NCBI GenBank assembly: GCA_937873455.1
Contig: CALMYG010000002.1
Span: 11,325 to 75,324, forward strand
Direction of reading: 5' to 3'
From: an uncultured Verrucomicrobiota bacterium
GTDB lineage: Bacteria; Verrucomicrobiota; Kiritimatiellia; CAIVKH01
DNA length: 64,000 bases
The notes beneath the pieces were generated by a model, which saw nothing but the letters and a program-made list of their open reading frames with translations, did not search any database and was not told the DNA's origin. Positions 16,293 through 34,505 of the stretch are shown in pieces. The position numbers and the translations under genes were made by a program. Position 1 is the first letter of the stretch, and every line of letters begins with the position of its first letter.

Positions 16293-17126
16293 ATGGAAAT
16301 CACCGCATCATTAGTCAAAGAACTGCGTGACGAGACCAATCTCGGCATGATGGAATGCAAACGCGCCTTGCAGGAAGCCGGCGGCGACAAGGAAAAGGCC
16401 GTACGCCTTCTCCGCGAACGCGGCCTGGCGATTGCCGGCAAAAAAGCCGAACGCGTGGCCAAGGAAGGACGAATCGCCGCCGACATCTATGACAACGGCA
16501 AAACCGGCGTCATGATCGAGGTCAACTGCGAAACCGACTTCGTCGCCAAAAACGAAAACTTCCAGGGCTTTGTCGCCACCCTGCTCGCCCATGCCAAAGG
16601 CATCGACGGCAGCCTGGCCGAAGCCGCAAAAGATCAAGTCGTCGCCAAGATCGCGGAGATCGGCGAAAACATCATCGTGCGCCGCAACGTCAAGTACTCC
16701 GTCCAAGGTAACGGCGCCATCGCCGGGTATATCCACCTCGGCGGCAAGGTCGGCGTGCTTCTCGAAGTAGGCTGTGACAAAGCGGAAACCATCCAGGCCG
16801 ATGCCTTCAAGGAAGCGGTCAAGGATGTCACCCTGCATATTGCCGCCGCCAACCCGCAATTCCTCAACCGCGCCGACGTGGCTCCCGAAGTCATCGCCGC
16901 CGAACGGGAAATTTACGCCAAGCAGGTGGAGGGCAAGCCCGCCAACATCGTGGACAAGATCGTCGACGGCAAGCTGGAAAAATTTTACAGCACCATCGTC
17001 CTGGTCGAGCAGGGATTCGTTAAGGACCCTGACCACACCGTGGCTGACATGCTCGCCGCCAAAGGCAAGGAGCTGGGCGACAACCTGGTCATCCGTCGGT
17101 TCACCCGCTACCAAGTCGGGGTGTAG
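16293..17126 (+). CDS. tsf: Elongation factor Ts
   Basis: ITASLVKELRDETNLGMMECKRAL... 35 nt downstream of rpsB, the conserved rpsB-tsf operon. Confidence 0.95.
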   Translation: MEITASLVKELRDETNLGMMECKRALQEAGGDKEKAVRLLRERGLAIAGKKAERVAKEGRIAADIYDNGKTGVMIEVNCETDFVAKNENFQGFVATLLAHAKGIDGSLAEAAKDQVVAKIAEIGENIIVRRNVKYSVQGNGAIAGYIHLGGKVGVLLEVGCDKAETIQADAFKEAVKDVTLHIAAANPQFLNRADVAPEVIAAEREIYAKQVEGKPANIVDKIVDGKLEKFYSTIVLVEQGFVKDPDHTVADMLAAKGKELGDNLVIRRFTRYQVGV

Positions 17127-17150
17127 TTCAAACCGGCAGACCAAAATCAA

Positions 17151-17178
17151 AAGGCGGCTTCGGCCGCCTTTTTTTATC
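17151..17178 (+). terminator. Rho-independent terminator of rpsB-tsf
   Basis: aaggcggc-ttcg-gccgcctt followed by T7. Confidence 0.7.
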
Positions 17179-17402
17179 GCCACGACCATCGGGCGCATCC
17201 GGCCAGCGATTCTGATTAGGAACACGCGACAAGCCAGGCATCGTTGTGCGCCGAAGGCGCATGCGGTACCGCGGGAAGCCATCGGGTAAATACCGCGCTT
17301 CGCGGGATTCGGTTTCCCAAAAAAGTCAACCAATCCGGGAAGCGCCCGCCACCCGGTCCACGAAGCTGGCGCGATGATCCCCCGTTATGGTATTGTTTGC
17401 GT

Positions 17403-18524
17403 ATGGCATCACCTGATCAGTCCATACCAAAGGGAAGAGTCGCCGTCGGGCTTAGCGGCGGCGTGGACAGTTCCGTAGCTGCCGCCCTCCTCGTGGACCA
17501 GGGGTGGGAGGTCATCGGCTTCACCTTGCACATGTTCAAGGAGGGCTCCCGCTGCTGTTCCATCGAAGACGTCAATCGCGCGCGGCGCATTTGCGATCAC
17601 CTGGGCATTCGTCACTACGTGATCAACGTCATGGACCGCTTCATGGAAGAAGTGGTCCGCCCCTTCACCGACGCGTACGCCGCTGGCCGCACCCCCAACC
17701 CCTGCATTTATTGCAACCGGCTCTTTAAATTCGGCACCGTGCTCGAACGCGCCCGGCAACTCGGCTGCAGCCACATGGCAACCGGCCATTATGTGCGCCT
17801 GGATCGTGATGCCGACGGCCTCTATTTTCTGCGCCAAGGACGCGATCCTAATAAAGATCAGTCCTACTTCCTTCACCGACTTACCCAGGACCAACTCGGC
17901 AGCGCGTTATTCCCCCTCGGTGAGCTTACCAAACCCGAGGTTCGGGTGATTGCGCGGGAAAAACAATTGCCCATCGAGGGCGCCCGCGAAACCGCCGACT
18001 TGTGTTTCATCACCGGGAAGGGACCGGCCCCGCTTATTGAACAGTTTCATCCGGAAGTCGCCCGCCCGGGCGATATCACCGACCAAGCCGGACGGGTTCT
18101 TGGCCAACACGGCGGCATCCATAAATTCACCCTCGGACAACGTGAAGGCCTCGGCATCGCCACCGGAGAAAAGATGTATGTCAAAGCCCTTCGCCCGGAA
18201 GAAAACATAGTCGTCGTCGGGCGTCGCCCGGAAATCCTCTCGTCCGCGTTTACCGTCCACGACCTCTTCTGGGTAAAAGATCGTCCCCCGCCTGACGAGA
18301 GCTCCCTGTTGGTGCGCACCCGTTACCGGCAAAAACCCGTTCCGGCCATCATCACCGGCAGCCCCGATTCCAGCACGCCATCCACCCCGGAAACATTCCC
18401 CCGCATCGCGGTGACGCTTGAAGAACCGATTTTTGCCGTAACCCCCGGACAGGCCGCCGTTTTTTACGACGGTGACGCCGTACTCGGGGGCGGATGGATC
18501 GAAAATTTCACTTTATCTGTCTAG
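17403..18524 (+). CDS. mnmA: tRNA-specific 2-thiouridylase MnmA
   Basis: Start trimmed to the ATG at 17403 (MASPDQ...). PP-loop VAVGLSGGVDSSVAA, catalytic cysteines (CCS..., TPNPCIYCN), and C-terminal domains. Confidence 0.9.
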   Translation: MASPDQSIPKGRVAVGLSGGVDSSVAAALLVDQGWEVIGFTLHMFKEGSRCCSIEDVNRARRICDHLGIRHYVINVMDRFMEEVVRPFTDAYAAGRTPNPCIYCNRLFKFGTVLERARQLGCSHMATGHYVRLDRDADGLYFLRQGRDPNKDQSYFLHRLTQDQLGSALFPLGELTKPEVRVIAREKQLPIEGARETADLCFITGKGPAPLIEQFHPEVARPGDITDQAGRVLGQHGGIHKFTLGQREGLGIATGEKMYVKALRPEENIVVVGRRPEILSSAFTVHDLFWVKDRPPPDESSLLVRTRYRQKPVPAIITGSPDSSTPSTPETFPRIAVTLEEPIFAVTPGQAAVFYDGDAVLGGGWIENFTLSV

Positions 18525-18627
18525 CCGGATAAAGTAATATATACGCCAACACAAGTAGTTATGAAGGTTGCGCCGCCGCATTTCGCCCTTTCGCGCATAC
18601 GGCCGGCTTAACCGTGGGAGCGACACC

Positions 18628-21600
18628 GTGAGCACGCATGTACATACCAATCGGGAAAAACTTCTTCGCGAGGCCCTGGCCCGCCGTATTTTGATCATTG
18701 ATGGCGCCATGGGCACCATGATCCAGCAGTACAAACTGCAGGAAGCCGACTACCGGGGTGAACGCTTCAAGGATTTTCCCCGCGATGTCAAAGGCAACAA
18801 CGACCTGCTCACCCTGACCCAGCCCCACATCATTCAGGAAATTCACCGCAAGTACCTGGAAGCCGGAGCGGATATCCTCGAGACCAACACCTTCAACGCA
18901 CAGTCGATCTCCATGGCCGACTACCACATGGAGGATCTTGCCTACGAACTGAACGTTGCCGGCGCCCGCATCGCCCGTGAAGTCGCCGATGCTTTCGAAA
19001 AGAAAAACCCGGCGAAGCCGCGCTTCGTCGCCGGCGTGATCGGCCCGACCAACCGCACCGCATCGATCTCCCCCGATGTCAACAATCCAGGTTTCCGCAA
19101 CGTCAACTTCGACCAACTGGTAACCGCGTACACGGAGTCCGTGCGCGGGCTGATCGATGGCGGCTCGGATATTATTTTGATTGAGACGGTGTTCGACACC
19201 CTCAACGCCAAAGCCGCGATCTACGCCGTGAAGCGCTACCTTGCGGAGCAAGGCATCGCAATGCCGATCATGATATCCGGCACGATCACCGACCGTAGCG
19301 GACGCACCCTCACCGGCCAGACCGCCGAGGCGTTCTGGTATTCGATGATGCACGCCGACCCGATCAGCATCGGCTTTAACTGCGCCCTCGGCGCCGCCGA
19401 CATGCGCCAGCACATCGACGACGTGTCGCGCGTGACCCCCGCCTACATCAGCACCCACCCCAACGCCGGGCTCCCCAACGCCTTCGGCGGCTACGATGAA
19501 ACCCCCGAGGACATGGCGAAGATCCTGCGCGAGTTTGCCGAAAGCGGCCTGATCAATATGGTCGGCGGCTGCTGCGGCACCACGCCGGAACACATCAAAG
19601 CCATCGCCGAAGCAGTGGAAGGCCTCCCCCCGCGCCGCCCCCCCGTGGTCGAAAAGACCCTGCGTCTCTCCGGCCTCGAACCGTTCGTGATCCGCCCGGA
19701 AACCAACTTCGTCAACATCGGCGAGCGTTGCAACGTCACCGGCTCGCGCAAGTTTCTCCGCCTGATCAAGGACGGCAAGCTCGACGAGGCCCTTGATGTC
19801 GCCAAGGTGCAGGTTGAAAACGGCGCCCAACTGCTCGACATCAACCTCGATGAAGGGCTGCTCGACGCCGAAACGTTGATGCCCCAATTTCTGAACCTGA
19901 TGGCGTCCGAGCCGGAAATCTCAAAGGTTCCCTTCGTGATCGACTCCTCCAAGTGGAAGGTCATTGAAGCCGGGCTGAAGTGCGTACAGGGCAAATGCGT
20001 GGTCAATTCCATCAGCCTCAAGGAGGGCGAAGACGTGTTTGTCGAACAGGCCCGCAAGGCCCGGCTCTACGGCGCGGCGGTGATCGTGATGGCCTTCGAC
20101 ACCAACGGCCAGGCTGACACCCTGGAGCGTCGATTGGAGATCTGCACCCGCTCGTACAAAATCCTCACCGAGGTTGTCGGCTTCCCGCCCGAGGACATTA
20201 TTTTTGACCACAACATCTTTGCCATCGGAACCGGCATTGAAGAGCACAGCGGCTATGGCGTGACCTTCATCGAGGCCACCCGCCAACTCAAGACCGCCCT
20301 CCCCCACATCCGCATCAGCGGCGGCGTGAGCAACGTCTCCTTCTCCTTCCGCGGCAACGAACCGGTGCGGGAGGCCATCCACTCCGTGTTCCTCTACCAT
20401 GCCATCAAGGCCGGGATGGACATGGGCATCGTCAACGCGGGCCAGCTCGCGGTGTACGACGACATCGCCACCGAACTGCGCGAACGCGTGGAAGACCTGG
20501 TGCTCAACAAACGCCCTGACGCCACCGAACGCCTGCTCGAAATCGCCGGTAAATACAGCGGACAGGAAAAAGCGAAGGAAGAAGAACAAGCCTGGCGCAG
20601 CCTGCCGGTGCGCGAACGCCTCGCCCACGCCCTGGTGAAGGGCATCACGGATTATATTGATCAGGATACCGAGGAAGTGCGCAAGGAAACCAGCCACCCC
20701 CTCGAAGTCATCGAAGGCCCGCTCATGGCCGGCATGAATATTGTCGGCGACTTGTTCGGCGCGGGCAAAATGTTCCTGCCGCAGGTCGTCAAAAGCGCGC
20801 GCGTGATGAAAAAGGCGGTCGCCTACCTCGAACCGTATTTCGAAGAAGCCAAGAAAACCGGTCCGGCTCAAGTCAAGGGCCGCATCCTCATGGCCACGGT
20901 AAAGGGCGACGTCCACGATATTGGGAAAAACATCGTGGGCGTGGTATTGCAGTGCAACAATTACGAGGTCATTGATATCGGGGTCATGCAGGCCTGCGAG
21001 ACGATTCTGCGCACGGCGAAGGAACGCGGCTGCAATGTGATCGGCCTGTCCGGTTTGATCACACCGTCGCTGGACGAAATGGTCCACGTCGCCTCGGAAA
21101 TGAAACGCGAGGGCTTCGACATTCCCCTGCTCATCGGCGGGGCCACCACCTCGAAGGTTCACACGGCGGTCAAGATCGCCCCGCAATACCAGGAGCCGGT
21201 GGTGTACGTGCCCGACGCCTCGCGGGTGGTCGGAGTGGTGAGCAAATTGCTCAGCGCGGAACAAAAGCCCGATTATGTCAAGGAACTGCATGCCGAGTAC
21301 GAGGGCGTGCGGGAGATCCAGCGCAACAAAGTGTCGCGGGAAAAATGGCTGACCATCAATCAGGCGCGTGCCGGAAGATTTCCCACTGACTGGAAAACCT
21401 ACACCCCGCCGAAACCCACCTTCACCGGCATCAAGACGCTGGTCGATTATCCCCTGGAGAAATTAGTCGAGCGGATCGACTGGACCCCGTTCTTCGCCAC
21501 GTGGGAATTGGCCGGCCTGTATCCGGAAATTTTTGACGATGCCGTAGTCGGCAAAGAGGCACGGAAGCTGTTCGACGACGCCCAGGCCATGCTGAAACAG

Positions 21601-22320
21601 ATGATGGCCCACAAATGGGTCACCGCCAACGCGGTCTGCGGCTTCTGGCCGGCCAATGCGGTGGGTGATGATGTTGAGTTCTACACCGACGATTCGCGCA
21701 AGCAGGTATTGCAAACCTTCCATTTCCTGCGCCAGCAAATGGACAAGCCGACCAGCAAGGCCAATCTTTGCCTCGCCGACTGGGTTGCACCGAAAGAGAC
21801 CGGCGTGCCGGATTGGGTCGGCGGCTTCGCGGTCACCGCCGGACACGGCATCGAGAAACAGCTCGAGGTGTTTGAGAAGGACCACGACGACTACCACAGC
21901 ATTTTGCTCAAGGCCCTAGCCGACCGCCTCGCCGAGGCGTTTGCCGAACACCTGCACGAGCGGGTGCGCAAGGAATTCTGGGGTTACGCCGCCGACGAGG
22001 TCATGAGCAACGACGATTTGATCCTCGAAAAGTACCGCGGTATTCGTCCCGCGCCGGGTTATCCGGCCTGCCCGGACCACACCGAAAAAGGCCCGCTCTT
22101 CGAACTGCTTGATGCTCCCGCACAAGCCGGCATCCGCCTCACCGAAAGTTTCGCCATGTACCCCGGCGCGGCGGTCAGCGGCTTCTACTTCAGCCACCCC
22201 GACTCCACCTACTTCGGCATCGGCCGCATCAACAAAGACCAGGTCGAGGACTACGCGAAGCGCAAAGGCGAGTCGGTGCAGTATGTCGAGCGCTGGCTGG
22301 CGCCGATTCTTGGGTACTGA
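18628..22320 (+). CDS. metH: Cobalamin-dependent methionine synthase MetH
   Basis: Hcy-binding, pterin-binding, B12-binding ([20 protein letters not shown]) and AdoMet activation domains are all present. The GTG at 18628 with RBS GGGAG gives an N-terminus matching MetH homologues; the longest ORF ATG is at 18568. Confidence 0.95.
22207..22247 (+). repeat. Left copy of imperfect direct repeat (metH 3' end, att-like)
   Basis: acctacttcggcatcggccg-ca-tcaacaa-a-gaccaggtcga, repeated at 32949-32989 with roughly 37 of 41 bases identical. Confidence 0.6.
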
Positions 22321-22365
22321 TTGGATTTTGGAATTTGGAATGCGGATTTTGGATTTGTGAAGGGT

Positions 22366-22809
22366 TCACGGCTTAAGTTCTGGATGTTTCGAATCCAACC
22401 ACGCCAGAACATCCACCTCAAGTCCTCGCGCGAATTCAATCAACTCATCTGCGTCGGCTTCTGTTGCGCCTCCCACATAGTCATACTCGACGGTGTTTCG
22501 TTTGGCTCGGCAGGTGTCGAGATATACGGCGTCGGTCTTTCGCTCGTCGCCGAGAATAAGCGGTAACGCCTGAAGCGTCCGATAGTGAGCAAGATTTTGG
22601 CTTGGTCTGTATCCTTCGGAATAAAGTAGAACCGTGCAAAGCTTTAACACTGCGTTATAGGCGATTCCAAAGCGCCAGTCAGAAGATATTCCACCCGCAG
22701 CGGAATCCGATATATCGCGACGAGCGATTGACACCAGGTTTTCTATTTCCTTTCGACTCGTCTTATGCGGTCTTAGCCAGCCATTAGTTTCCCATTGTTT
22801 TAAGCTCAT
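22366..22809 (-). CDS. HEPN-fold / nucleotidyltransferase-substrate-binding-like protein (partner of upstream MNT)
   Basis: 147 aa, predicted all-alpha, overlapping the 3' end of the MNT gene by 26 nt. The canonical Rx4-6H motif was not seen, so the assignment is by context. Confidence 0.45.
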   Translation of the reverse strand: MSLKQWETNGWLRPHKTSRKEIENLVSIARRDISDSAAGGISSDWRFGIAYNAVLKLCTVLLYSEGYRPSQNLAHYRTLQALPLILGDERKTDAVYLDTCRAKRNTVEYDYVGGATEADADELIEFARGLEVDVLAWLDSKHPELKP

Positions 22810-23377
22810 TAGGCGAACCTACCACAAAGATTTTCTCTGAATCCATAACGGAGGTTACAAAATGATCATTTTCTCGAAGCCGGCGGGAAAAATCCTCTGC
22901 GGTGATTACGTGCGGATTGATTTCTCTTCCCAAACGATCACTGAGACCGGAAAGCAATGACGATAACTTGCGGAGACTGATCGAACCGATCACCATTAGA
23001 TCGATGTCGCTATCCGCGCCAGCGGTGTCGCCAGCCACCGACCCAAAGACAAACGCACACCGAATACCATCCACCGCCAAAACATCACCCAGCACGTCGG
23101 CCAAGCCTATTGTTTTTAACACAAGTTGGTGAATATCCGGATAAAGTGGGTGGTTCTTGTTCGCAGAATAATACAACCGGTTCCCGTTACGCCGACGCGA
23201 CACGATACCCAATATGTTTAATTTCTCAATGTCCTGTCGCACTGTTCCGATGGTGAATCCAGTTTGCCGCTGTAAGTCTCGTAGATGGACCTCTCCTCCG
23301 CGCAAACCGAACAAAATCCGGAATATTTCCGCCCGGACTCGCGAGCAAACCAATTGAGCTAATACATTCATATGCAT
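22784..23377 (-). CDS. Winged-helix DNA-binding domain fused to minimal nucleotidyltransferase (MNT/MntA-like)
   Basis: C-terminal GSVAGDTAGADSDIDLMV, the GS-x9-13-DxD NTase motif. N-terminal wHTH (LRDLQRQTGFTIGTVRQDIEKLNILGIV). Confidence 0.75.
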   Translation of the reverse strand: MHMNVLAQLVCSRVRAEIFRILFGLRGGEVHLRDLQRQTGFTIGTVRQDIEKLNILGIVSRRRNGNRLYYSANKNHPLYPDIHQLVLKTIGLADVLGDVLAVDGIRCAFVFGSVAGDTAGADSDIDLMVIGSISLRKLSSLLSGLSDRLGREINPHVITAEDFSRRLRENDHFVTSVMDSEKIFVVGSPNELKTMGN

Positions 23378-23719
23378 GCTTATACCATACGTACGATTGG
23401 TGTGACCACACTATTTTCTAGTTCAATTAGGCTAATTCAATGATACGCGCTTCCAAGAACACTCAAAAGAGAGAACAGATTGAAGAACGCAGGGGGGCAT
23501 GCATCCGTTTATGCAAATACACAATACAACGATACAGCGCGCGCGATTTTGTCCCACAAAAAAGAGCGATGCAACCCACACAAAAGCCACGAAAATCGGT
23601 ATACAATAAACGTACGAGCGGCCGCTTCCGGAAACATGTTCAAACGAAACAAGTTGTGCGGGGGGCTTGACATATAATGAGCGGCATGATAGGTTCGCGT
23701 AAATTAACAGGATATTACT

Positions 23720-24094
23720 ATGGCTTTCGAAAAGTTTACGCAGACAGGTACACGTCAAGCTCCGCTTGTTTCAATTAGGCGGGGGGGGTCGCTTGGATTA
23801 TCGCAGGGGGCCATAAATCGCTATGGTTTTGACAATGACATGACCCATGTAGTCTTGTTTTACGACAAAGAAGACAAACTAGTTGGGATTAAACCAATTG
23901 CCGGAGATTCTGAAGAGCATGCAATTAAAGTGATAGTCAGGCCGTATAAGGCGGCTAAGGGAAAAGAGTCAAAGACCGCGTTTTTCTCTGCCAAGTCATT
24001 TTTGGATTTTTACGCAATTCCGTATTCAGAGACCAAATCATATGACGCGAAGTGGGATGAACAGAACGCGATGATCGTCATCGATTTAAAATAA
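23720..24094 (+). CDS. Hypothetical protein
   Basis: 124-aa ORF behind an AT-rich promoter-like region (TTGACA/TATAAT hexamers at 23667-23678). No recognisable motif. Confidence 0.45.
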   Translation: MAFEKFTQTGTRQAPLVSIRRGGSLGLSQGAINRYGFDNDMTHVVLFYDKEDKLVGIKPIAGDSEEHAIKVIVRPYKAAKGKESKTAFFSAKSFLDFYAIPYSETKSYDAKWDEQNAMIVIDLK

Positions 24095-24259
24095 CATAAA
24101 AACTTATGGGCCCCGAGTAGCCTCGTGACCCATAAGCGAACCGGCCAGTTACGGACCGATTACTGTCTGTAACCTCTAATCTAAGACCATAACTGGCCAA
24201 ACGCAAGCAAAACCCGACCACTCGGCGGGCTACAGTCGAGTGGTCATGGAGTAACAGTT

Positions 24260-24772
24260 ATGGCATGGACCATGAGGATAGAACGAGCGAAACCAAATCC
24301 GCTCGGTAAAGACAAAACGGGTGCGGGATATCCCAAGCTTAATCAACTACTCGGAGAGTGGGTTGATCTCAAAAATATTGGAGATCAATCAGTCGACCTG
24401 AGTCAACTGCACTTGGCTCATCTTGAGTTCAGTGCTGGATGCAAACCCAAGGAAAGACCGGTGATCTACTGGAATGGGAAGGCGGGTACCATTCTGGGGC
24501 CTGGGCAAGTAGCTCGTATTCATACCGGAAGAAGTTCTGACTCACACCAAATGGATCTCGTGGACCAATTCGGTGCCGACATCCATTCATACGCCGAAAG
24601 CGGTTCGTTTGTTCTTAACAACGACTGCGGCGACGTTATGAGTGTGTGGTGGAAAGACCGCGAGGGAAACCTCCATAGAGATGATGCGGCTGGGTATGAT
24701 CCCAACCCACCAGAAGGTGCTATCCTGACCAGGGTTGGTCCAAAACTAAAACCAGTTCTGAGTTACGCATAA
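24260..24772 (+). CDS. Lamin-tail-domain (LTD) protein
   Basis: NPLGKD...GEWVDLKNIGDQSVDLSQLHL and NNDCGDVMSVWW..GNLHRD fit the LTD motif pattern NP.G.D..EWVEL.N.G...VDLSGW.L ... N.GD.V.L. Confidence 0.55.
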   Translation: MAWTMRIERAKPNPLGKDKTGAGYPKLNQLLGEWVDLKNIGDQSVDLSQLHLAHLEFSAGCKPKERPVIYWNGKAGTILGPGQVARIHTGRSSDSHQMDLVDQFGADIHSYAESGSFVLNNDCGDVMSVWWKDREGNLHRDDAAGYDPNPPEGAILTRVGPKLKPVLSYA

Positions 24773-24877
24773 GTGAAGCGGCGGCGATCCTTGTGTCTGT
24801 TGAAATGATTCGTTCCATAATGGATCATTTCAACGGCCAAGGAGCGCCTGACCGTCATATGATTGATGACTCACCTT

Positions 24878-25489
24878 CTAATAATCAAACACACCCTTGA
24901 TCCCGCTTTGGTCGAGTTGTACTTGACGCGGTATAAAATTATAACATGCTTGAGTCAGTTCCCATTGGCCATTCTTAACCAATTCCTTCTTTAATACAGC
25001 CAAGAGTCGAGGTAGATAAAAGACGTCTTTGGCTGCATATTTCAACTGTGCATCTGATAATTTTTTGGCCGCCCAATTCGAAGTGCGCATTCGCTTATCG
25101 ATACGAATCCCCAGTTTATCTCTTAGCAAAGACTTTAAACTATGATCACGCCTTGTCGGATCGACCAATTTGGATGCCACCTTTGTACAGGCGATGTTTT
25201 GAGGTTCTATTTGCCACTGATTAACCATGAAATTGAGATCAAATAATGCATAGTGAAACACCTTGCAGATATCTGGGCGCTCAATTAGCTCGATCATCTT
25301 TTGCGGCAAACCGCTGCCTGCCTTGATCACATAAACACTGCCACCTCCATACACCTGAAAAGACGCGATTGAGTTATCTCGCCAATCAAGACCTGTTGTT
25401 TCTATATCAACAGCCACAGCGCGCTTGGCTTTATAGCGGTCAATATTCAAGGATGCTGGTAAATCATGCGCCTTAAAAATGACATTCAT
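24878..25489 (-). CDS. 3'-5' exonuclease, DEDDy family (RNase D / WRN-exo-like domain)
   Basis: Exo I VAVDIETTGL, Exo II HYALFDLNFM and Exo III YAAKDVFYL motifs. The internal ATG at 25489 lies immediately after the upstream gene's stop (taa-t-ATG). Confidence 0.8.
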   Translation of the reverse strand: MNVIFKAHDLPASLNIDRYKAKRAVAVDIETTGLDWRDNSIASFQVYGGGSVYVIKAGSGLPQKMIELIERPDICKVFHYALFDLNFMVNQWQIEPQNIACTKVASKLVDPTRRDHSLKSLLRDKLGIRIDKRMRTSNWAAKKLSDAQLKYAAKDVFYLPRLLAVLKKELVKNGQWELTQACYNFIPRQVQLDQSGIKGVFDY

Positions 25490-25490
25490 A

Positions 25491-26264
25491 TTAATTTGCC
25501 CAGTGATAAAGTGATAACAATTGCCGATCAATGAAGTCGTATAATGTGCCTTCCCTTCGGACGCACAACACAGGAACGCCTCCACGGCCTTTGTCATGCT
25601 TGTGCAATGTAATTATTGCAATATCATCGAAACGATAAATATTAAAAAGAGGCGTTACTGGAGCTAGAATCACTTTTATCTTGTCGCCATTGTCCTCGAA
25701 TATTTGCTGGAACTCCTTAATGGTTTCATTAATGGACGCGATGATGTCGTCGTTGGGCAGATCGAATCGCCTCGCAAGCTCCGAAATACATGCTCCGTTT
25801 TTCGGATCCGGAACAATAAGCTTCAAAGTGGTCCCACGACGGGAGGCGAATTCCTTAAGACGCTTCAAGTTTGAATTTCTCCATGTTCGCGCATATGCAA
25901 AAAAAAGGTCGATCTGTTTAGCGTTCCGGAAAAGATCGTCCCATGAAACGTCCTGATAAAAATCCTGTGGCGTCGCGGTAATTCCCGCTTGTTTAAGATC
26001 ATCAGCGATCTTAGCACTTGCCAATATTTCAGCGACGAACGCACGTTTATTGATCAATTCCCATATTAGCATTATTAGGGCTGCGGGAAAAACAAGAGAT
26101 CCCGTTTGCGAGATCAGTTTCTGGAGCGTTGGGTGATAACTCAACCATGGAATCGATTCCGCGATATACATCAAGAGAAGTCCGATGCCCGCAACGACTA
26201 GCATTGATATAATAACGTGGAGATTTGTTCTTTCCTTGAGAAGATTTGTAATTCTATTTGGCAT
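25491..26264 (-). CDS. Membrane protein (2-3 N-terminal TM helices + ~170-aa soluble C-terminal domain), function unknown
   Basis: Hydrophobic segments LHVIISMLVVAGIGLLLMYIAESIPWL and SLVFPAALIMLIWELI. Very AT-rich gene, translationally coupled to the downstream exonuclease. Confidence 0.6.
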   Translation of the reverse strand: MPNRITNLLKERTNLHVIISMLVVAGIGLLLMYIAESIPWLSYHPTLQKLISQTGSLVFPAALIMLIWELINKRAFVAEILASAKIADDLKQAGITATPQDFYQDVSWDDLFRNAKQIDLFFAYARTWRNSNLKRLKEFASRRGTTLKLIVPDPKNGACISELARRFDLPNDDIIASINETIKEFQQIFEDNGDKIKVILAPVTPLFNIYRFDDIAIITLHKHDKGRGGVPVLCVRREGTLYDFIDRQLLSLYHWAN

Positions 26265-26305
26265 CGGACATCCATCCTCTTAAGCTTATATTTTAGCATT
26301 CCTGT

Positions 26306-28888
26306 TTATGTAATTCCCAGCACCTTCGTACACTCCTCCCCGAACTGGCTGATTACGCGGACGGCGATTTTTTGGGTCTTTTTCTTGATCTCGATGGGGT
26401 GTGAAAGGTGGCCGTAGATGCGGTCGAAGGCTTCGTCGTCGATTTCGATTTTCAGGGTTTTTTCGGCGTTGCGTTTGGTGGATGATTTGGCGAGGTCGGA
26501 GAGGCCGCGTTTCCATTTGTTGAACTCGTCCTTGTCGCCGCCGCAGAAGAAGACCTGGCGGACCATGAAGTTGCTGCCGTCGTAATCGTCGTCCACCATC
26601 CAGTAGGCGATGTCAGCGACGTCGCGGGGTTTGACTTCGTCGGTAACGGGGTCGTAGATGTCGAGGCCGCGGATTTCGACTTGAACTGCCTTGGGTTCGT
26701 TTTTCTTGGATTTTAACTCATTCAGCACAATATCCGGCTCGCCGATGGTGACAAAGGAGGCGGCTTTTTTGTCGCGTTTGAGCAGGCCGTCCTGCATCAG
26801 ATCGTCGTGCATGCGGACCTTGGTGACTTCGAAGGTGCCCATGCTGGCTGTCACGCTTTGGTTCTCGATGTTGCTCTCGAAGGAAAAGCCGAGAATGATC
26901 AGCCAGTCGGCGTCGCCGCGGGTCCGGCATTCCTTGACCGCTTCGTTGACCGCCTGACGGCTGACCGTGCCGAACTTGGGACCGATGTGGATGTAGGCCT
27001 TCTTTTCACCTTTGGCCGACTGGTAAAATCCTTCGGCGTGCAGATAGGCGCTGTTCAGCCGGTCCACCCGCATGAACACCGCCTGCTCGTTGCGGATGCC
27101 GTTTTTGATGCCGGCAGACTTCATGTGCTCGAATATCCGCTCTTCAAATGATTCCAATTCGTCCTTGTCCGGCACCGGCTTGTCCAATTCCTCCGCAGCA
27201 ATCGGTTCAAAGTTCTGGAGGGGTTCGACGGTGAACGGACCCGAGACGCGGAGCTTCTTCCGGTCAAATTCTGGCTGGTCAACAAGTATCTCTTCTCCCA
27301 GAGTTTCTTGTTGAGCAATTTGACCTAGCGTTACATGCGGCACTTTCTTGTACACGAATCCTTGCCGTATGTCGCTACCCGCATCGTCATACAGCTTGTA
27401 GTAAGGATAAGTTGACGAAAGAAGCCTTGTCTTTGATATATTTAAGGCAATTCGTGATGTGTCGATTGCAATCCAACGACGACCCCACTCCTCTGCAACA
27501 ACGGCAGTCGTTCCGCTACCGCATGTCGGATCAAGCACCAAATCACCGGGATCAGTTGCCATCAACATACACCGCTGAATTACGGTTACACCCGTTTGAA
27601 CAACATACAATTTGCCGGAGGCACCAGCAGTATCGGTCCACAAGTTGTTAACCTCAACAACCGGATAATCATCATAATACAATTTATAGCGAAGGGCATT
27701 CTGGGTGGCATACAGACGATTTTGATCGGCCAATTGCTTCATACCGGTCAGGTTGGTTTTCCAGCTTTTTCCAGCAGTAGGCCTATAGATTTTACCGTTC
27801 CACTCAAAATCAAATACACATGATTCTGTTCTTCCCGACGAAGAAAGATCTAGGCTCGTAAATACACGCGCACCCTCTGGTAACTTCAAGAGTTTCGACC
27901 GCTCATTTTTGCCAACAGATTCAATCCTCCCATCAGGATATTCAATCAAGCTGAATTGCTCTGATTCAACCACATCTTGATCTTGAAAAAGTTTTCGGTA
28001 TTTCATTGCCCCATCAGAAAAGCGCTTGCCGTACCATATAATGTAGTCGCATACGCCTGGTATGTAGGCATTTCGAAGAGGATTTTTAGTTTGAAATGCA
28101 ATTTGTGACACGAAATTATCACCGCCAAAGACTTCATCCATGAGACTGCGAACTAAATGCACATTCTCGTCGCTTATCTGCACGAAACACGATCCGCTTT
28201 CACTCAGAAGCTCCTTGGCCACGAGCAACCGATCACGCAAGTAGCCCAAGTAAGAGTGAATTCCTAACTCCCATGTATCACGATACGCTTTGATCTGCTC
28301 TGGTTCGCCCGTCAACTCCTCATCAGGCTGACTCTCTGACATAGATCGTTTATTCAGCTTCATCTGCCAGTTCGATCCGTATTTTATTCCGTATGGCGGA
28401 TCGATGTAGATCATCTGGACTTTGCCGGCCATGCCTTCTCGTTCGAGGAGGGAGGTCATGACGAGCTGGCTGTCGCCCTGGATCATGCGGTTGGTCCAGT
28501 CGTCGGCGTGCTGGTAGTACTCGGACACCTTGTCGATCTCGTCGAGTTTCAGTCCGTGGCCGAAGAGTCCGTTCAGAAAGGTTTGCTGGGCGTCGGGCAC
28601 TTCCTTGAGCTGGTACAATCGTCCGATGATTTTTTCCGGGGCAATGTGTTCGTGGCGATAGAGGGAGCGGATATCAACCTTGAGCCGGTCTTCGCGGTCA
28701 TCGGCACCGTATTTATGCATCCAGAACAATTCCGGGTCCTGGCCGCGATGGACGACGGGATTCACGGGAAAGTCCGCCTTTTCCTTGCCGCCTTTGACCC
28801 TCGGGCTGGACGATTCCTGCCCGGCTTCTTCTCGGGAAGGAATCAGCACCCGCTTCTCTTTGGAATGTTTGATGGATTTGATGGTCAT
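26306..28888 (-). CDS. mod: Type III restriction-modification Mod-like DNA methyltransferase (beta-class N6A/N4C MTase)
   Basis: Motif [11 protein letters not shown] precedes motif [17 protein letters not shown], the permuted beta-class order typical of Mod. 860 aa. Confidence 0.85.
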
Positions 28889-29082
28889 TTCGCGGCCTTG
28901 GTTCGGTAGGTGGCGCGGGTTTCGCGGGCGGCAGCGGCGGCTTCCGGACGCAGATGGACAATTTTACCATTCTTCACGACATGGATCGGGAGGCCGGCCT
29001 GCCATTGGCGGGCAATGGCTTTTTTCACCGCGGCTTTCATGGCGCGATCAGCCTGCACGGCCATGGATTCAGTTTTCTTCAT
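28885..29082 (-). CDS. Small hypothetical protein (65 aa) translationally coupled between P-loop kinase and mod
   Basis: Its ATG overlaps the kinase stop as ATGA, and its own stop overlaps the mod start as ATGA. Basic, lysine- and alanine-rich N-terminal stretch [29 protein letters not shown]. Confidence 0.4.
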
Positions 29083-29771
29083 GCTTTCGTCTCCCGGAGA
29101 AACACGTCGTAGCATTCCTCATTTCGAACACGTTCGGCACCCTCGGCCAACTCCACCATCAATACCGGTGAATTCCCCGAATTATCAAAGATCATGCACG
29201 AGTCAGCAAGTTTTTGATAAGCAGGCAGATTGGCGATAAATCGGGGCCAGCGCCGCCGGCGCGCCTCTTCCGGTACGTCATGCCCGCCCAATTTGACCCG
29301 GTTGGTAATCCGATATCGGGCCAAAGCGGGTTTGGATATCCACAATATGAACAAATGAATGTGATAGCCTCGCCGTTTTAGCTTCTTGATAAGGGCCAAA
29401 TAACTCCGGCCCGACAGGGTGGTTTCGAAGCCGAAATCATTCCCTTTCCGCGACAATTCCTCAATCCGGGTGAGGACCAGGCGTCCGGCGGAAAGCATGG
29501 CCCGGGCAGGGTCAAGGGGCGCCAATCCCTGGGCAATCAGGTCGGGGTTCACGAATTCACCGCAGTGCGCGTAGTGCGGCAGGTATTCCAATGCGAAGGT
29601 GGTTTTGCCCGCGCCGTTGGGTCCGGCAATGATGAAGCAGTTTGGTGCCTTAGCCATGGACAACTCCATCCGCCGTGTAGTAGCCGCTCCGTGAGCGGCA
29701 CGCCGACATGCTCGCTCGTCGAAATATGCGCCTCGCGGAAGCGCTACTACACCGCATGACTGATGGCTCAC
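29079..29771 (-). CDS. Zeta-toxin / AAA_33-like P-loop kinase
   Basis: Walker [13 protein letters not shown] and the kinase-fold arrangement. The start codon overlaps the res stop as ATGA. An alternative internal start at 29657 or 29669 is possible. Confidence 0.7.
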
Positions 29772-32700
29772 ACACCCGCCACCTCACGGGTCAGGATATA
29801 ATCACGCAACTGATTTTTGATATCACGGATATCCCCGGCAATCTCGATAAAGGCCCACGGATCATATTCGTACTTCTCCCGGACGGCATTGACGGCGGGA
29901 AGCCAGCGGTTTTCGACATACCACTTTTTGGCCGCCTTGTCCTGGCTCATGCCGGAGATTTCGATGATAAGGTTGATGTGCTGATCTTCAGCCACGCGGC
30001 ACCGGGCGATGAAATCGGGGAAATACAGCTTGTCTTTGCCGTCTTGAACATACGGGATGGCGAAGCCGAGGAAGGCGTTCTTCACGTAGGCTTCGACTTC
30101 ATCAAGCTCTTCCAATGTCTTGGCGGCGATCTGCTCCCAGCTATCGGTATCGGCGACCACATAATTGACATGGCTTTTCGTTGTTTCGAAAACCGGCCGT
30201 GAGGTGTGGCCATTGACGTAGGTGGTGCTGCCAAACTTATTGTAGAAATTAAGCACCGGTAGAATCTGATCCGTGGCCCGGCTGGCGGCCATGATGCCCC
30301 GGCTGATATGGCTACAGATCCGGTCCGGCAGGACAAAATACAGCAATTTTTTGAATGCCGGATCGGGAATGTTCAGCAGAACCACTTTGGTATGGTACCA
30401 CTTCTCGACAATGCGGAGAAGCTGGTTGAATTTGTAAAATTGGGGCTGACCATTGTCATCGCTGTAATGTTGATTGATCAGCGCGCGGGTGATCAGGAAA
30501 AATAATTCCTGCTCACGTTTTTCCACGATGGAACGGACCGTGAGTTTTTCCGTATTTTCGGAAAAAGCGGTGGCCATCTCGGTTTCCAGCGGGAATTTGG
30601 TGCCGTCGATTTCAAAATTTTCCAGGTTGGAAAAGTCGGCGGTGATGGGTCCGTCGCGTGATTCCACCCGGTAGCCGACGACATTGGGGAATGTGATCTC
30701 GAACTTTTCCTGCCGTTCCGGAATTGCAAGGATGTGCCACTTATCCACGGGCGGCGGAGGCTTGATCGTCCCGCCCTTGAACATGCGGAACGGAACGCCA
30801 ATGATGTGGGCGTATTCCGGGGGAAACTTCCAGGTGATATTTTCCGGCTTGAACCGTTTGATATTGTCCTCGGGAATTTCCTGTCCGTCCTTGTCGTAGG
30901 CTTGCAGTATGTAGTTCTTCCGGCGCAAAGCGCGGCCGGCGACCTGTTCGCAAAGCAACTGCGATCCGAAGGCGCGAAGCCCCATGATATGGGTGACGGT
31001 ATTGGCATCCCAGCCCTCGGTCAGCATGGAAACAGACACCACGCAACGAATATGGGCGCCCAGCATCCCTTTCTTCCCGACGGAGTTGACCACCTCGCGC
31101 ATGATTTCGGCCTCGGTGATGTTTTCGGCCGAGCCTTGGCCATGAATACGGGCGTACTCGCGTTTAAACACCTCGATTTCGTCGGAGAAGATTTTCTTGA
31201 AATCGTCGTTGATCTGATCGGAGTTTTCCAGGGCATCGCTGTCGATAAGGAGCGTCGGAGGCTTTTTGAGTGGTTTATGGGTTTTCCGGTCGTAGTTTGA
31301 AAAAATTTCAAAATGTCCGGGAATGGCCCGCAAGGTGTCATCCGGCAGGGTTTGTTCGTACCCGGCAATGTATTTGTATACTTCCTTGGAAACCGACGTG
31401 TTGTTGCATACGACAATAAACACGGGCGGGCTGTCGAACAATCCGCGGATTTGTTCATAATCGCGCTGGTAGTGCCCGTGGAATTTTTCGAGGGCGGCCT
31501 GCACGAGCGTCGGCAATTTCGGCGGTTCCTCCCCGACGGGGGTTTTCCCTTCCTTGCGGGCATCGGACTTTCGGCGCTTCTGACCCTTCTTTGGCAGTTC
31601 GTCCTTCACGTGTTCGTAAAGGTTGCGCAGGACCGGCATGGTCAATTCGTGGGTGGTATCGCTTTCCGGCAAGAAAGGAATTTTCACCAAACCGGCCTCA
31701 ATGGCCTCGATGAGGCCGAAATCGGTGACGACCCAGGGGAACAGGCTGTAAGCATCGTAACCGGAACCGGTCAGGTAATACGGCGTGGCGCTAAGATCAT
31801 AGACGGTGTCGACCTTGAATCGTTTGGCTACCTCAGTCAGCCCGGTAAACCAGACGGCGGCCCGTTTGTTTTCCTCCTTGGTATCCTCGCCCTCAATAGC
31901 CTTCCCGGCTTCTTTGGGCAGATAGCAGTGGTGAGCTTCATCGTTCAGGATCAGGAGGCGCGAGCCCGGCTTGATCTTGCCGAGCACGCGGCGCAGCATT
32001 TGTCCGGCATCTTCGGTCGCCTGCTGTTTTTCGCCCTGGGCATTGATTTTTCCATCAAATGGACTGCGTTTATTGCCCTGAAGGGTACGAGGTTCAAACG
32101 CGTGGTAATTGGTGATCACGATCCGGGCATTCAAATTGCCCATTTTGTTGTCCCACCCACGTGGAATCAGCGAGCGGGCATGATAGTAGTCCGTAATTTC
32201 CGCACGGCGGTCGAGGTTTACAAACAGCACGCCGAGGCGGTTTTTGATCGTGATACCGGGCGCAACAATCAGAAAGGAATCGGCGAAGCGGGTGTCGTTT
32301 CGGTATTCCTGTCGATTGAAGAAGTGATAGAGAATCTGCATGGCCATGACCACGGTTTTCCCGGTGCCGGTAGCCATTTTGAACGCGACGCGCGGCAGAT
32401 TGCAGGACAGGTTTTCCGTGCTGACCTGCTGGGCGGAACGCAATTGATTCAGGACATATTGACCGGCATTGGACCGGTCAGCTACTTCATTCAACCAAAT
32501 GGCAGTTTCGATGGCCTCGCGCTGGGCGAAGAAAAGTTTGGCCTCGGCATGTCGATCGGGATTTAGAAACCAAAAAGTCAGTAATTCGCGGGTCACGCGA
32601 GTCACCGAGGGATAACCATCCTTCCGCCAAAGCCCGACCTCTTTCCGCAACAAGTTGATCAAATGAGAACCAAATTCCTCGGCTCGTTCATTGATCTCGA

Positions 32701-32869
32701 ACATGGACCGTTGAGGTCCCTGCCGAACTGGAATAGACTGAATTTCCGGGGCAAAAATTCGGCGTCCCTTGACGATTTTCTGATAGTCCAGCGTTCCCTC
32801 GTCATCCGTGGCATAATGAAGCAACGGTTCATCATACGGGCTATTGAGGATGGGGTTGTCGGTTGTCAT
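29768..32869 (-). CDS. res: Type III restriction enzyme Res-like subunit (SF2 helicase/ATPase + C-terminal nuclease region)
   Basis: Walker [15 protein letters not shown] box LNDEAHHCY, later helicase motifs, and a ~300-aa C-terminal region. 1033 aa. Confidence 0.85.
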
Positions 32870-32924
32870 GAACCTCGCCTAATCACCGGCAAAACAATGC
32901 ATTTTCCCTGCGATCAGGGCAAGT

Positions 32925-33023
32925 ACGGAAAAGACGAGTCTCCAGTCAACCTACTTCGGCATCGGCCGGTTCAACAAGGACCAGGTCGATAGCGCCAACC
33001 CGCAGCGGTCAAACCAATGAAGC
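32925..33023 (+). pseudogene. Displaced, degenerate metH 3'-end fragment (right att-like repeat)
   Basis: Translates to ...[26 protein letters not shown], against authentic MetH ...[24 protein letters not shown].... A 20-nt exact match (acctacttcggcatcggccg) is present. Confidence 0.5.
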
Positions 33024-33069
33024 ATGTCCATTTTTAGCGACATGAACCACTATACTCCAACCGCTGATT

Positions 33070-33777
33070 TTGATATCACCGATCACCGTGACGGATCAAC
33101 CACCCCAATCGAGCCGTGAAATCGCGGTGTTCATCAGCGGGCGGGAATCGACGTGCGATGAATGCGGTCAGTCACTCGGCGCTCACGCCTGGATCACCGT
33201 GCGCGAAGGCAAGGCGGCGTGCCTTTCCTGCTCCGACCTTGATCATCTGGTGTTCCTGGCGTCGGGCAATGCCGCGCTGACGCGGCGCGCAAAAAAACAC
33301 TCCAAGCTGTCCGCCGTTGTGTTGAAGTGGAGCAAGGCCCGGAAACGCTACGAGCGGCAGGGGCATCTGGTGGAAAACGAAGCGCTCGAACGGGCGGAAA
33401 GCGAGTGCGAGGCCGACGCCGGGGAGCGGGAAGTCCGGCGCGCCCGGGAGGTCCTGCGCCGCGCAGAAATCGACCAGATCTATGTGCGCGCCTTCGCGGA
33501 AAAAGTCCGCGCGCTTTATCCCTCCTGTCCGGCCAAGCGGGAGTTTTTCATCGCCGAACACGCCTGCCGGAAATACAGCGGGCGGGTCGGGCGCACGGCT
33601 ATGGCCAAGGAGCTGGATGAAAAAGCCGTGCGCCTCGCCATGCGCGCCCATATCCGGCATGAGGAAACCGGATACGACACGATCCTTTCGCGCGGAACCG
33701 ACCGCCACGAAGCCCGCGACCGGGTGGCAGATGCGATCGATGACGTTGAACGCGCGTGGAGCGGCCCCGCTGCGTAG
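33070..33777 (+). CDS. Conserved hypothetical protein with N-terminal zinc-ribbon (DUF2293-like)
   Basis: CDECGQSL...CLSC zinc ribbon; C-terminal HIRHEETGYD motif as I recall it for the DUF2293 family. Confidence 0.55.
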   Translation: MISPITVTDQPPQSSREIAVFISGRESTCDECGQSLGAHAWITVREGKAACLSCSDLDHLVFLASGNAALTRRAKKHSKLSAVVLKWSKARKRYERQGHLVENEALERAESECEADAGEREVRRAREVLRRAEIDQIYVRAFAEKVRALYPSCPAKREFFIAEHACRKYSGRVGRTAMAKELDEKAVRLAMRAHIRHEETGYDTILSRGTDRHEARDRVADAIDDVERAWSGPAA

Positions 33778-33868
33778 TGCGTCATGATCAGCCTCGGCAT
33801 TCAGGCAGGGGCGCCGTTCTTTGGTGTACACGGTCAGGCCAGACCATAGTTGGCTCTCGCCCCCCCGC

Positions 33869-34444
33869 TCACACCTTCAAGCGCGCGAGGACTTCGGGGG
33901 TGCCGTCACGCAGGAGGATGATCAGCACCTCGCCTTCGGCGGGAAAAACATCGGCGATGGCGGTGATGTTGACTTGATGGGTGACCAAAACCAAGGGCTG
34001 GTCACCCGCCCACCCGGCAAGAAATGACATCAGCGCAGCGGTTTGTTCCGCTTCGCGGCGGGGGGCGGCAAAGAAGGAGTTGAGCGCGGGCAACAGCTCG
34101 ACGAGACCAAGGCCGAGAAGTTCCGCCGTCTCCAGGCAGCGGCACCATTGACTGCTGTAGACCCGGGCGTGAACGATGCCGTTGGCCCGCAACAGATCCC
34201 CGATCCGCCGAGCCTGATCGCGACCGGCATCAGACAGATTCCGCTGCGTCGCGCAATCGTCCAACTGGAAACCTGCCGGATCGCCGGTTCCGGGTGCACG
34301 GGCATGGCGCAGGATCACGGCGGCCCGTCCTTCACGAACCAGCCGCCACGCCTCCCCATCCGTATCCGCAGCAAACGCTGACCCGGCTGAAAGCGCCAGC
34401 GCGCAGGAGCCAAACCAACGAAGCATGCATCTTTTCCACCACAT
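33869..34444 (-). CDS. Secreted histidine phosphatase superfamily protein (phosphoglycerate-mutase-like)
   Basis: Signal peptide, then a VILRHARAP RHG-like motif with a downstream His. Confidence 0.65.
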   Translation of the reverse strand: MWWKRCMLRWFGSCALALSAGSAFAADTDGEAWRLVREGRAAVILRHARAPGTGDPAGFQLDDCATQRNLSDAGRDQARRIGDLLRANGIVHARVYSSQWCRCLETAELLGLGLVELLPALNSFFAAPRREAEQTAALMSFLAGWAGDQPLVLVTHQVNITAIADVFPAEGEVLIILLRDGTPEVLARLKV

Positions 34445-34505
34445 GCCCCAAAATACCCCAATCCGCCGCTTTTGCGATGGATGAGCCCAGGTTGCCCGGC
34501 GAAAC

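Follow-up and report, generated by a model that had tools for sequence, protein, structure and literature searches.

A probable horizontally acquired defence island, without an integrase of its own, in the 3' end of metH of an uncultured Kiritimatiellia bacterium

Results

A piece of metH recurs at the far border of a low-GC block

We analysed a 64,000-nt stretch of DNA from an uncultured bacterium of the Kiritimatiellia (Verrucomicrobiota; contig CALMYG010000002.1 of assembly GCA_937873455.1, positions 11,325–75,324; hereafter the window), in which a 10.7-kb island of mostly defence-type genes lies between the 3' end of metH, the gene for cobalamin-dependent methionine synthase, and a gene for a DUF2293 protein. 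The metH gene (18628–22320, + strand), which is the target of the island, follows the genes for S2, EF-Ts and mnmA and is intact, encoding 1230 amino acids (aa) with five domains (Pfam S-methyl_trans, Pterin_bind, B12-binding_2, B12-binding and Met_synt_B12). The DUF2293 gene (33070–33777, + strand; Pfam DUF2293, E 1.5e-24) is the first gene of host composition to the right and is followed by genes for a histidine phosphatase and for large beta-helix proteins.

An initial annotation of this DNA had described a 41-bp imperfect direct repeat with a 20-nt core at the two borders of the block. The repeat is there as described, 22207–22247 and 32949–32989 being identical at 38 of 41 positions with an exact core of 20 nt (ACCTACTTCGGCATCGGCCG), and the pair grows by a further 3 nt leftward to give 22204–22247 (copy 1) and 32946–32989 (copy 2), both on the + strand and matching at 40 of 44 positions (91%). 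Copy 1 is in the metH frame, within the C-terminal coding part of the functional gene, while copy 2 translates to a MetH-like stretch that then runs into DSANPQRSNQ*. Copy 2 is the sole significant match in the window to the final 211 nt of metH (blastn-short E 4.5e-11; runner-up E 0.6), and tblastn with the same query gives E 3.8e-5 for copy 2 and 0.77 for the runner-up; the similarity exceeds chance. Neither search found any other remnant of the metH tail in the window, and within 21000–34500 this pair is by far the strongest direct repeat.

To either side of copy 2 the similarity breaks off sharply. Both flanks score no better than shuffles when aligned to the metH tail by Smith-Waterman, and the last 73 nt of metH (EDYAKRKG...LGY*) have no second copy to the right, so that the description of copy 2 as a degenerate MetH tail holds over the repeat but no further. 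Decay of a complete second tail by point mutation was rejected on the grounds that the flanks retain no residual homology, and deletion or replacement is preferred. We also rejected an ancestral functional MetH that ended after copy 2, since the EDYAKRKG...ERWLxPxLGY tail is kept in 80 of 80 loci.

The stretch bracketed exactly by the two copies differs in composition from everything around it, with a GC content of 0.504 against 0.597 outside; none of 65 other windows of 10.6 kb falls below 0.577. The tetranucleotide distance peaks at the island (0.40 against at most 0.20 elsewhere), and GC at third codon positions (GC3) is 0.43–0.67 inside and 0.66–0.80 outside. The lower GC of the cargo noted in the initial annotation is thereby confirmed, and two compositional sub-modules can be told apart, the genes at 22.3–26.3 kb having a GC3 of 0.43–0.51 and the restriction-modification genes one of 0.62–0.67. 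To the right, the DUF2293 gene has a GC content of 0.65 and all the flanking genes are of host composition.

Sister islands and an empty site at metH

The two closest homologues of the island's restriction endonuclease Res (86% aa identity) lie in sister islands that also bear MetH fragments. One such island is found on the contigs L169 and L179, which are 99.96% identical and come from different samples but the same strain. In the orientation of the window these contigs read island genes, the start of Res, an arm of ~90 nt, an intact 192-nt metH tail (GIRLTESF...) and then the genes for DUF456 and PEGA proteins. The right flank of L169 is colinear with L001, a related metH locus (87.4% over 4444 nt), the alignment stopping exactly 192 nt inside the L001 metH, and in L001 the DUF456 and PEGA genes directly follow an uninterrupted metH. 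By this alignment L001 is an empty site and L169/L179 an occupied one, with the native tail displaced in its entirety. Both assemblies break at the identical base (L169:13519 and L179:11116, at the contig ends), ~0.9 kb past the methyltransferase gene mod, which suggests a repeat or a strain-variable segment inside that island.

A second sister island, L168, is complete but decayed. Its homology to the window runs unbroken from 22143 in the metH tail, across the stop codon and into the genes for PDC-M05B, PDC-M05A, a 124-aa open reading frame (ORF), Mod and Res. The M05B end of this island thus brings a metH tail of its own, from the window equivalent of ~22141 onward; the fragment is a pseudogene and is not preceded by a metH body. 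Near the opposite end, ~70 nt from the Res start, lies a metH-derived remnant of 32 nt (score reached by 0 of 500 shuffles). All three islands therefore have a piece of metH close to the start of Res, of 192 nt in L169, 44 nt in the window and 32 nt in L168, and the left edge of the metH homology, at 22129 in L169 and ~22141 in L168, agrees to within ~12 nt. Past the metH pseudo-tail the same contig carries further genes (L171:10843–16774): a 162-aa ORF, an Mrr_cat/NA-iREase1 nuclease with a Top1 zinc ribbon, Fic and MarR-like proteins and unassigned ORFs. The contig ends before any metH body.

The end of metH in the window resembles the tail borne by L168 more closely than it does native tails. 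In the variable last 53 nt of the gene (22268–22320) L168 is the nearest relative at 70% identity, compared with 49–55% for native tails, and the 45 nt that form the left arm of the island, from the metH stop to the M05B stop (22321–22365, + strand), are 58% identical to L168 and 20–24% identical to the native downstream DNA of L001, L002 (a second related locus) and L169. It follows from these comparisons that the metH tail probably travels with the island, that the present end of metH in the window would be of island type, and that copy 2 is likely to be the eroded remnant of the displaced metH tail. The duplicated unit appears to be ~190 nt rather than 41: the equivalent of the displaced native tail of L169 is 22129–22320 (+ strand), which we designate the attL region, copy 2 being the putative remnant of attR. 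The initial annotation had proposed that the element supplies a surrogate 3' end and displaces the original tail, and this is upheld by the island-borne tail of L168 and the intact displaced tail of L169/L179. It had also drawn the island between the repeats; the bracketing stands, but the left border is moved into metH, the junction between native gene and island-borne tail falling somewhere in about 22129–22267 and the last ~53 nt being of island type, and does not follow the stop codon. An amino acid signature, 'YVERW', was downgraded as proof of an island-borne tail because like motifs occur in unrelated MetH proteins, and the nucleotide comparison was used instead.

Gene content of the island

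The cargo had been described as wholly of defence or addiction type. This is true of the restriction-modification genes, the PDC-M05 pair and a zeta-like kinase, but not of four ORFs (124, 170, 257 and 65 aa) that have no assignable function. Directly after the metH stop lie two short direct repeats of the GGATTTTGGA type (22323–22340 and 22344–22361, 21 nt apart), partly kept in the L168 island, which could be protein-binding (arm-type) sites or merely the spacer between convergent gene ends. Next comes PDC-M05B (22366–22809, − strand, 147 aa; PADLOC PDLC04374, E 9.4e-43, full length), some homologues of which carry the JGI name UPF0332. Its partner PDC-M05A (22784–23377, − strand, 197 aa; PADLOC PDLC04368, E 5.9e-55; Pfam Polbeta/NTP_transf_2) combines an N-terminal helix-turn-helix with a minimal, MntA-like nucleotidyltransferase. 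Both components of PDC-M05 are thus present and adjacent, their genes overlapping by 26 nt. An overlapping pair made up of an MntA-like helix-turn-helix nucleotidyltransferase and a 147-aa partner is reminiscent of the MNT-HEPN type VII toxin-antitoxin systems, but M05A scores far below the cut-off of the NCBIfam MntA_antitoxin equivalog (29 against 60 bits) and M05B has no HEPN domain, nor indeed any domain, by Pfam. We predict that the pair is probably a toxin-antitoxin-like addiction or defence module.

Two ORFs on the + strand follow. The first (23720–24094, 124 aa) is kept in the L168 island, to which 23719–24858 is 80.6% identical, and has no family match, its PDB sequence match to RuvB (residues 249–324 of chain 3pfi_A) being weak at E 0.047; the second (24260–24772, 170 aa) matches the Pfam lamin-tail domain LTD weakly, at 28.3 bits with a cut-off of 34.3. 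A DEDD-type 3'-5' exonuclease (24878–25489, − strand, 203 aa as called; Pfam DNA_pol_A_exo1, E 9.8e-32) and a 257-aa ORF (25491–26264, − strand) that matches nothing in Pfam, NCBIfam, PADLOC, PHROGs or the PDB sequences come next. The exonuclease gene is absent from L168 and L169, neither of which aligns with 24878–26264.

The remainder of the island is taken up by a restriction-modification system resembling type III. The DNA methyltransferase Mod (26306–28888, − strand, 860 aa) matches Pfam N6_N4_Mtase (E 1.4e-27) and PADLOC MTase_III (E 9.5e-157), and Res (29768–32869, − strand, 1033 aa) is a restriction endonuclease of the BPTD_3080 family with a ResIII helicase domain (Pfam), scoring 1066.9 bits over its full length against NCBIfam NF046055 with a cut-off of 800. 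The two genes share a strand and, apparently, an operon; the 880 nt that separate them contain two small ORFs. These are a zeta-toxin-like P-loop kinase (29079–29657, − strand, 192 aa; Pfam Zeta_toxin, E 1.7e-9, and AAA_33) and, between the kinase gene and mod, a 65-aa ORF (28885–29082, − strand) taken from the gene tables and without a family match. A Res above its model cut-off and a type III-matching Mod in the same apparent operon are as in type III systems, whereas the variable insert that separates them and the variable genes after Mod are not. The middle of the mod gene (27583–28107) cannot be aligned to L168 or L169 by blastn even though both ends are 80–83% identical, and GC dips there to 0.44–0.47; this segment is a probable swapped specificity (target-recognition) domain. 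Between the start codon of Res and copy 2 lies the right arm of the island (32870–32945), which has no similarity to the metH tail and whose counterparts measure ~90 nt in L169 and ~70 nt in L168.

The spacer between Res and Mod behaves as a variable slot. In the window (28885–29771) it holds the kinase and the 65-aa ORF, in L168:13133–15288 and L169:7851–10030 an AAA_15/AAA_21 ATPase with an ORF of 202–212 aa, and in contig L170 (3232–4782) and the P0132 contigs a DUF4062/HATPase_c_4 protein. The genes after Mod also vary, the exonuclease and the 257-aa ORF of the window being matched in position by an unassigned protein of ~520 aa in L168 and L170. An association with metH was rejected for the more distant homologues of Res and M05B: the 136 nt available 5' of Res in L170 (Res identity 80%) contain no significant metH remnant (score reached by 25 of 300 shuffles), the Res-X-Mod module of P0132 lies between pyrC and alr, away from metH, and in contig L175 the M05A/B pair stands alone, also away from metH. 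Since the module and the pair are each found alone in unrelated contexts, the cargo is independently mobile and modular.

A few features were noted at the flanks. In public assemblies the DUF2293 protein is called at 192 aa from a GTG at 33199; homologues have ~229 aa and the reading frame is open from 33070, so its start is probably mis-called and would lie at 33070–33088, only ~80–100 nt from copy 2. Just 5' of metH, a 75-nt segment (18493–18567) is 79% identical to the pre-metH region of L001 despite different upstream genes, and could be a conserved leader or regulatory element. A scan of 17000–34500 matched no Rfam family, no tRNA gene was found near the island, and promoter and terminator scans of both junctions returned nothing above expectation.

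Recombinases and possible mobile relatives

The initial annotation had found no recombinase, and our searches agree. No island ORF matches an integrase, transposase or excisionase in Pfam, NCBIfam, PADLOC, PHROGs or the PDB sequences, which also led us to reject a hidden recombinase among the unassigned ORFs. The tested ORFs across the rest of the window (housekeeping and polysaccharide synthesis) include no recombinase, and Pfam reveals none in the complete L168 island or in L170.

A mobile carrier of the metH tail was looked for in viral and plasmid collections. The 20-nt repeat core is absent from IMG/VR, and a MetH-tail profile matched only the metH of a giant virus. The tblastn matches among phages and plasmids were of two sorts, complete metH genes on replicons with wrong labels and, in gut contigs, genes for the activation domain alone (residues ~933–1225), and no phage, plasmid or IMG/VR element bearing a fragment of the metH tail was found. 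Two unannotated 'Bacteriophage sp.' sequences from human faeces (MT836629.1 and MT836020.1) carry a free-standing homologue of the activation domain of MetH, limited to residues ~933–1225. Nor was an integrative and conjugative element (ICE) or integrative and mobilisable element (IME) with an integrase and metH specificity present among the matches listed in the IMG/VR, phage and plasmid collections or around the Res and M05B homologues.

Relatives of the host

A scan of species-representative genomes with the MetH C-terminus returned only L001 (90% aa and 85% nt identity) and L002 (84% aa and 80% nt). Both differ from the window in gene order to the left and to the right of metH, and in both the gene is immediately followed by ordinary genes. 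The metH segment targeted by the island is among the most conserved parts of the gene, its nucleotide conservation being in the top 2% of the 127-nt windows of metH, and the repeat core at 22204–22226 ties as the longest perfectly conserved run among the metH genes of the window, L001 and L002; such conservation suits a recombination target.

A metagenome scan with the DUF2293 protein gave a best identity of 67%, and none of 80 related DUF2293 loci has metH or any other neighbour from the window nearby; among 5.8 billion proteins no DUF2293 relative exceeds 73% identity. While L001 supplies an empty site for the sister island L169/L179, none was found for the genome studied here, whose lineage has no close relative in any collection searched. 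The contigs with identical M05A (6), DUF2293 (8) or MetH (7) all bear the island. Several samples and several assemblers are represented among these 6–8 contigs, so an artefact can be dismissed; the island is real and, in this population, fixed.

Discussion

The locus invites comparison with two kinds of known element. In Escherichia coli, the prophage-like element e14 and phage 21 occupy the 3' end of icd; they are phage-derived and have their own integrase beside the att site. There, as at metH, insertion lies inside the 3' end of a protein-coding gene of an essential pathway, an element-borne surrogate gene end of more than 100 nt keeps the gene intact, and the displaced end is left as a pseudo-fragment at the far border. 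The metH island has target-derived direct repeats, an intact target gene and deviant composition in common with the icd footprint and differs in lacking an integrase within the element, in its non-phage (defence) cargo, in its target and in the erosion of its displaced tail to 44 nt. The label of a classic footprint of 3'-end integration, given in the initial annotation, is thus sustained by the sister islands as far as insertion into the metH tail is concerned; within the window the footprint is incomplete, the unit is ~190 nt, and we infer rather than observe site-specific catalysis.

A second parallel is offered by the cis-mobilisable elements (CIMEs) and by ICESt1/ICESt3-type elements, which accumulate in tandem at the fda 3' end of Streptococcus thermophilus (Pavlovic 2004 and Bellanger 2011, both cited in PMC5704250). 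Again the att-type repeats derive from the end of a protein-coding gene, and genes for integration and transfer are absent. The second accessory block past the tail remnant in L168/L171 would fit tandem accretion at one att site. The differences are that no integrase-bearing ICE or IME of the same specificity was found among the matches listed, that the attR of the window is cut to 44 nt, making even cis-mobilisation doubtful although the attL region is intact, and that the host belongs to the Kiritimatiellia and not to the Firmicutes.

We give a probability of roughly 0.6 to the reading that the stretch at ~22.13–32.99 kb is a decayed, locked-in, CIME-like defence island, acquired horizontally and belonging to a small family that inserts in the last ~190 nt of metH. 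Such an island would carry its own copy of the metH tail (~190 nt) and enter the last ~190 nt of the gene by conservative, Campbell-type insertion. The body of metH would then read into the island-borne tail and remain functional, and the native tail would end up at the far border, next to Res. Trimming on both sides, presumably by deletions, may later have reduced it in the window to the 44 nt of copy 2. The catalyst of the original insertion was most likely a site-specific integrase, probably of the tyrosine type, that has been lost or acted in trans, as in CIMEs. With no recombinase left, the island would be locked in place. The decay or immobilisation suggested earlier is accordingly probable, copy 2 being eroded to 44 nt and a recombinase absent. 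RecA needs a minimum of ~25 nt for efficient homologous recombination, and the 20-nt perfect run shared by the repeat copies falls below this. Recombination between the present copies (44 nt, 91%) is improbable whether by integrase or by homology, which effectively locks the island in. Its loss would presumably be penalised further by the PDC-M05 pair and the restriction-modification system.

Several results weigh against this reading. The absence of the 73 nt of metH due after copy 2 calls for at least one additional deletion, and without that displaced piece the footprint in the window alone is incomplete. There is no recombinase in the island, elsewhere among the tested ORFs of the window or in the complete L168 island, and no mobile element bearing the metH tail turned up in the collections searched. 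The left end of the L169/L179 island is unassembled, so no member of the family has been seen with both att sites intact. The signal that the metH end of the window is of island type comes from ~100 nt and one decayed comparator, and an empty site for this genome was not found.

The alternative that fares best, though we consider it unlikely, is that the island never had a recombinase and that the ~190-nt copy of the metH tail is a homology arm for RecA. The island would loop out as a circle by RecA-mediated exchange between its tail copies, and after transfer a single crossover in the metH tail of the recipient would restore the duplication, until erosion of copy 2 blocked loop-out and fixed the island. 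This would account for the lack of a recombinase in both completely sequenced members (the window and L168) and for the trimming of the second copy in these same persistent islands, to 44 and 32 nt. It draws further support from the ~190-nt unit, which is 94–95% identical between hosts that are ~85% identical overall and includes a 23-nt perfect run, and from a case in the Saprospiraceae (L068), in which an unrelated insert lacking an integrase is bracketed by a duplicated metH tail. A single crossover on ~190 nt of imperfect homology is inefficient, however, and has no precedent as the regular transfer route of an island; a fixed attP would give homology with nearly the same left edge, as seen in L168 and L169, though common descent would do so too; decayed islands commonly lose their integrase (PMC5704250); and the incomplete L169 island may still encode one. 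The broader proposition, a recombinase-free family of defence islands that uses host homologous recombination, in which loss of the second copy by erosion would turn a mobile island into a fixed one and of which L068 would be a second instance, seems to us slightly more doubtful again.

The Saprospiraceae locus is an independent case from a different phylum. In this metagenome-assembled genome (JAEUUP010000083.1, L068:10929–14434) a second copy of the final ~55 nt of metH, stop codon included, lies 3.4 kb further downstream (48-nt high-scoring segment pair, 91.7%, E 1e-13). The insert has a GC content of 0.32–0.42, with low GC continuing to ~15200, and encodes a TPR protein, a TPR and AAA ATPase protein and another TPR protein, but no integrase. 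The 3' end of metH may therefore be used as an insertion target more widely.

Less probable still is a one-off acquisition by homology-facilitated illegitimate recombination, in which a linear donor fragment comprising the metH tail, the island and the first part of the donor attR was joined by homology within metH on the left and illegitimately upstream of the DUF2293 gene on the right, the tail of the recipient and the DNA downstream of it being deleted in the same event. One step would then explain the abrupt right end of copy 2 and its lack of residual similarity, no integrase would be needed in this genome, and the genes to the right of the island would be expected to differ from those after metH in L001 and L169. 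Yet a donor with a tail duplication is still required, which makes this an addition to the integrative-island model rather than another origin, and the 75 nt absent to the left of copy 2 relative to L169 are left unexplained. Gene order around metH differs on both sides among the relatives, moreover, so a different right flank calls for no special event. Finally, a repeat produced by chance or assembly beside a low-GC block of native, fast-evolving DNA was rejected as scarcely credible: although the repeat spans just 44 nt and this genome has no known empty site, its E value is 4.5e-11 with the next match at 0.6 or weaker, it coincides with both borders of a 10-point drop in GC unlike any other 10.6-kb window, metH-derived pieces likewise flank the sister islands of three other contigs, and an identical structure is found in 6–8 contigs that differ in sample and assembler, NCBI GCA_035324135.1 among them.

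What the preferred reading describes is a known kind of genomic island, without its own integrase, at a target gene not previously reported; a limited search of the literature found no paper connecting metH to both an integrase and an island. This reading would add metH to the protein-coding genes whose 3' ends serve as attachment sites for islands, and provides a documented case in the Kiritimatiellia. To our knowledge, almost no mobile elements have been characterised in this class.

Together the window, L168, L169/L179 and L001 make up a small natural series that comprises an empty site, a recent insertion whose displaced tail is still intact, and two survivors that are eroded and lack an integrase. 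The series illustrates how islands of this kind may become fixed and how defence modules (restriction-modification, PDC-M05 and variable inserts) may be shuffled at one attachment site. If the integrase-free alternative were true, a borrowed piece of a conserved gene would offer defence cassettes a cheap means of spread.

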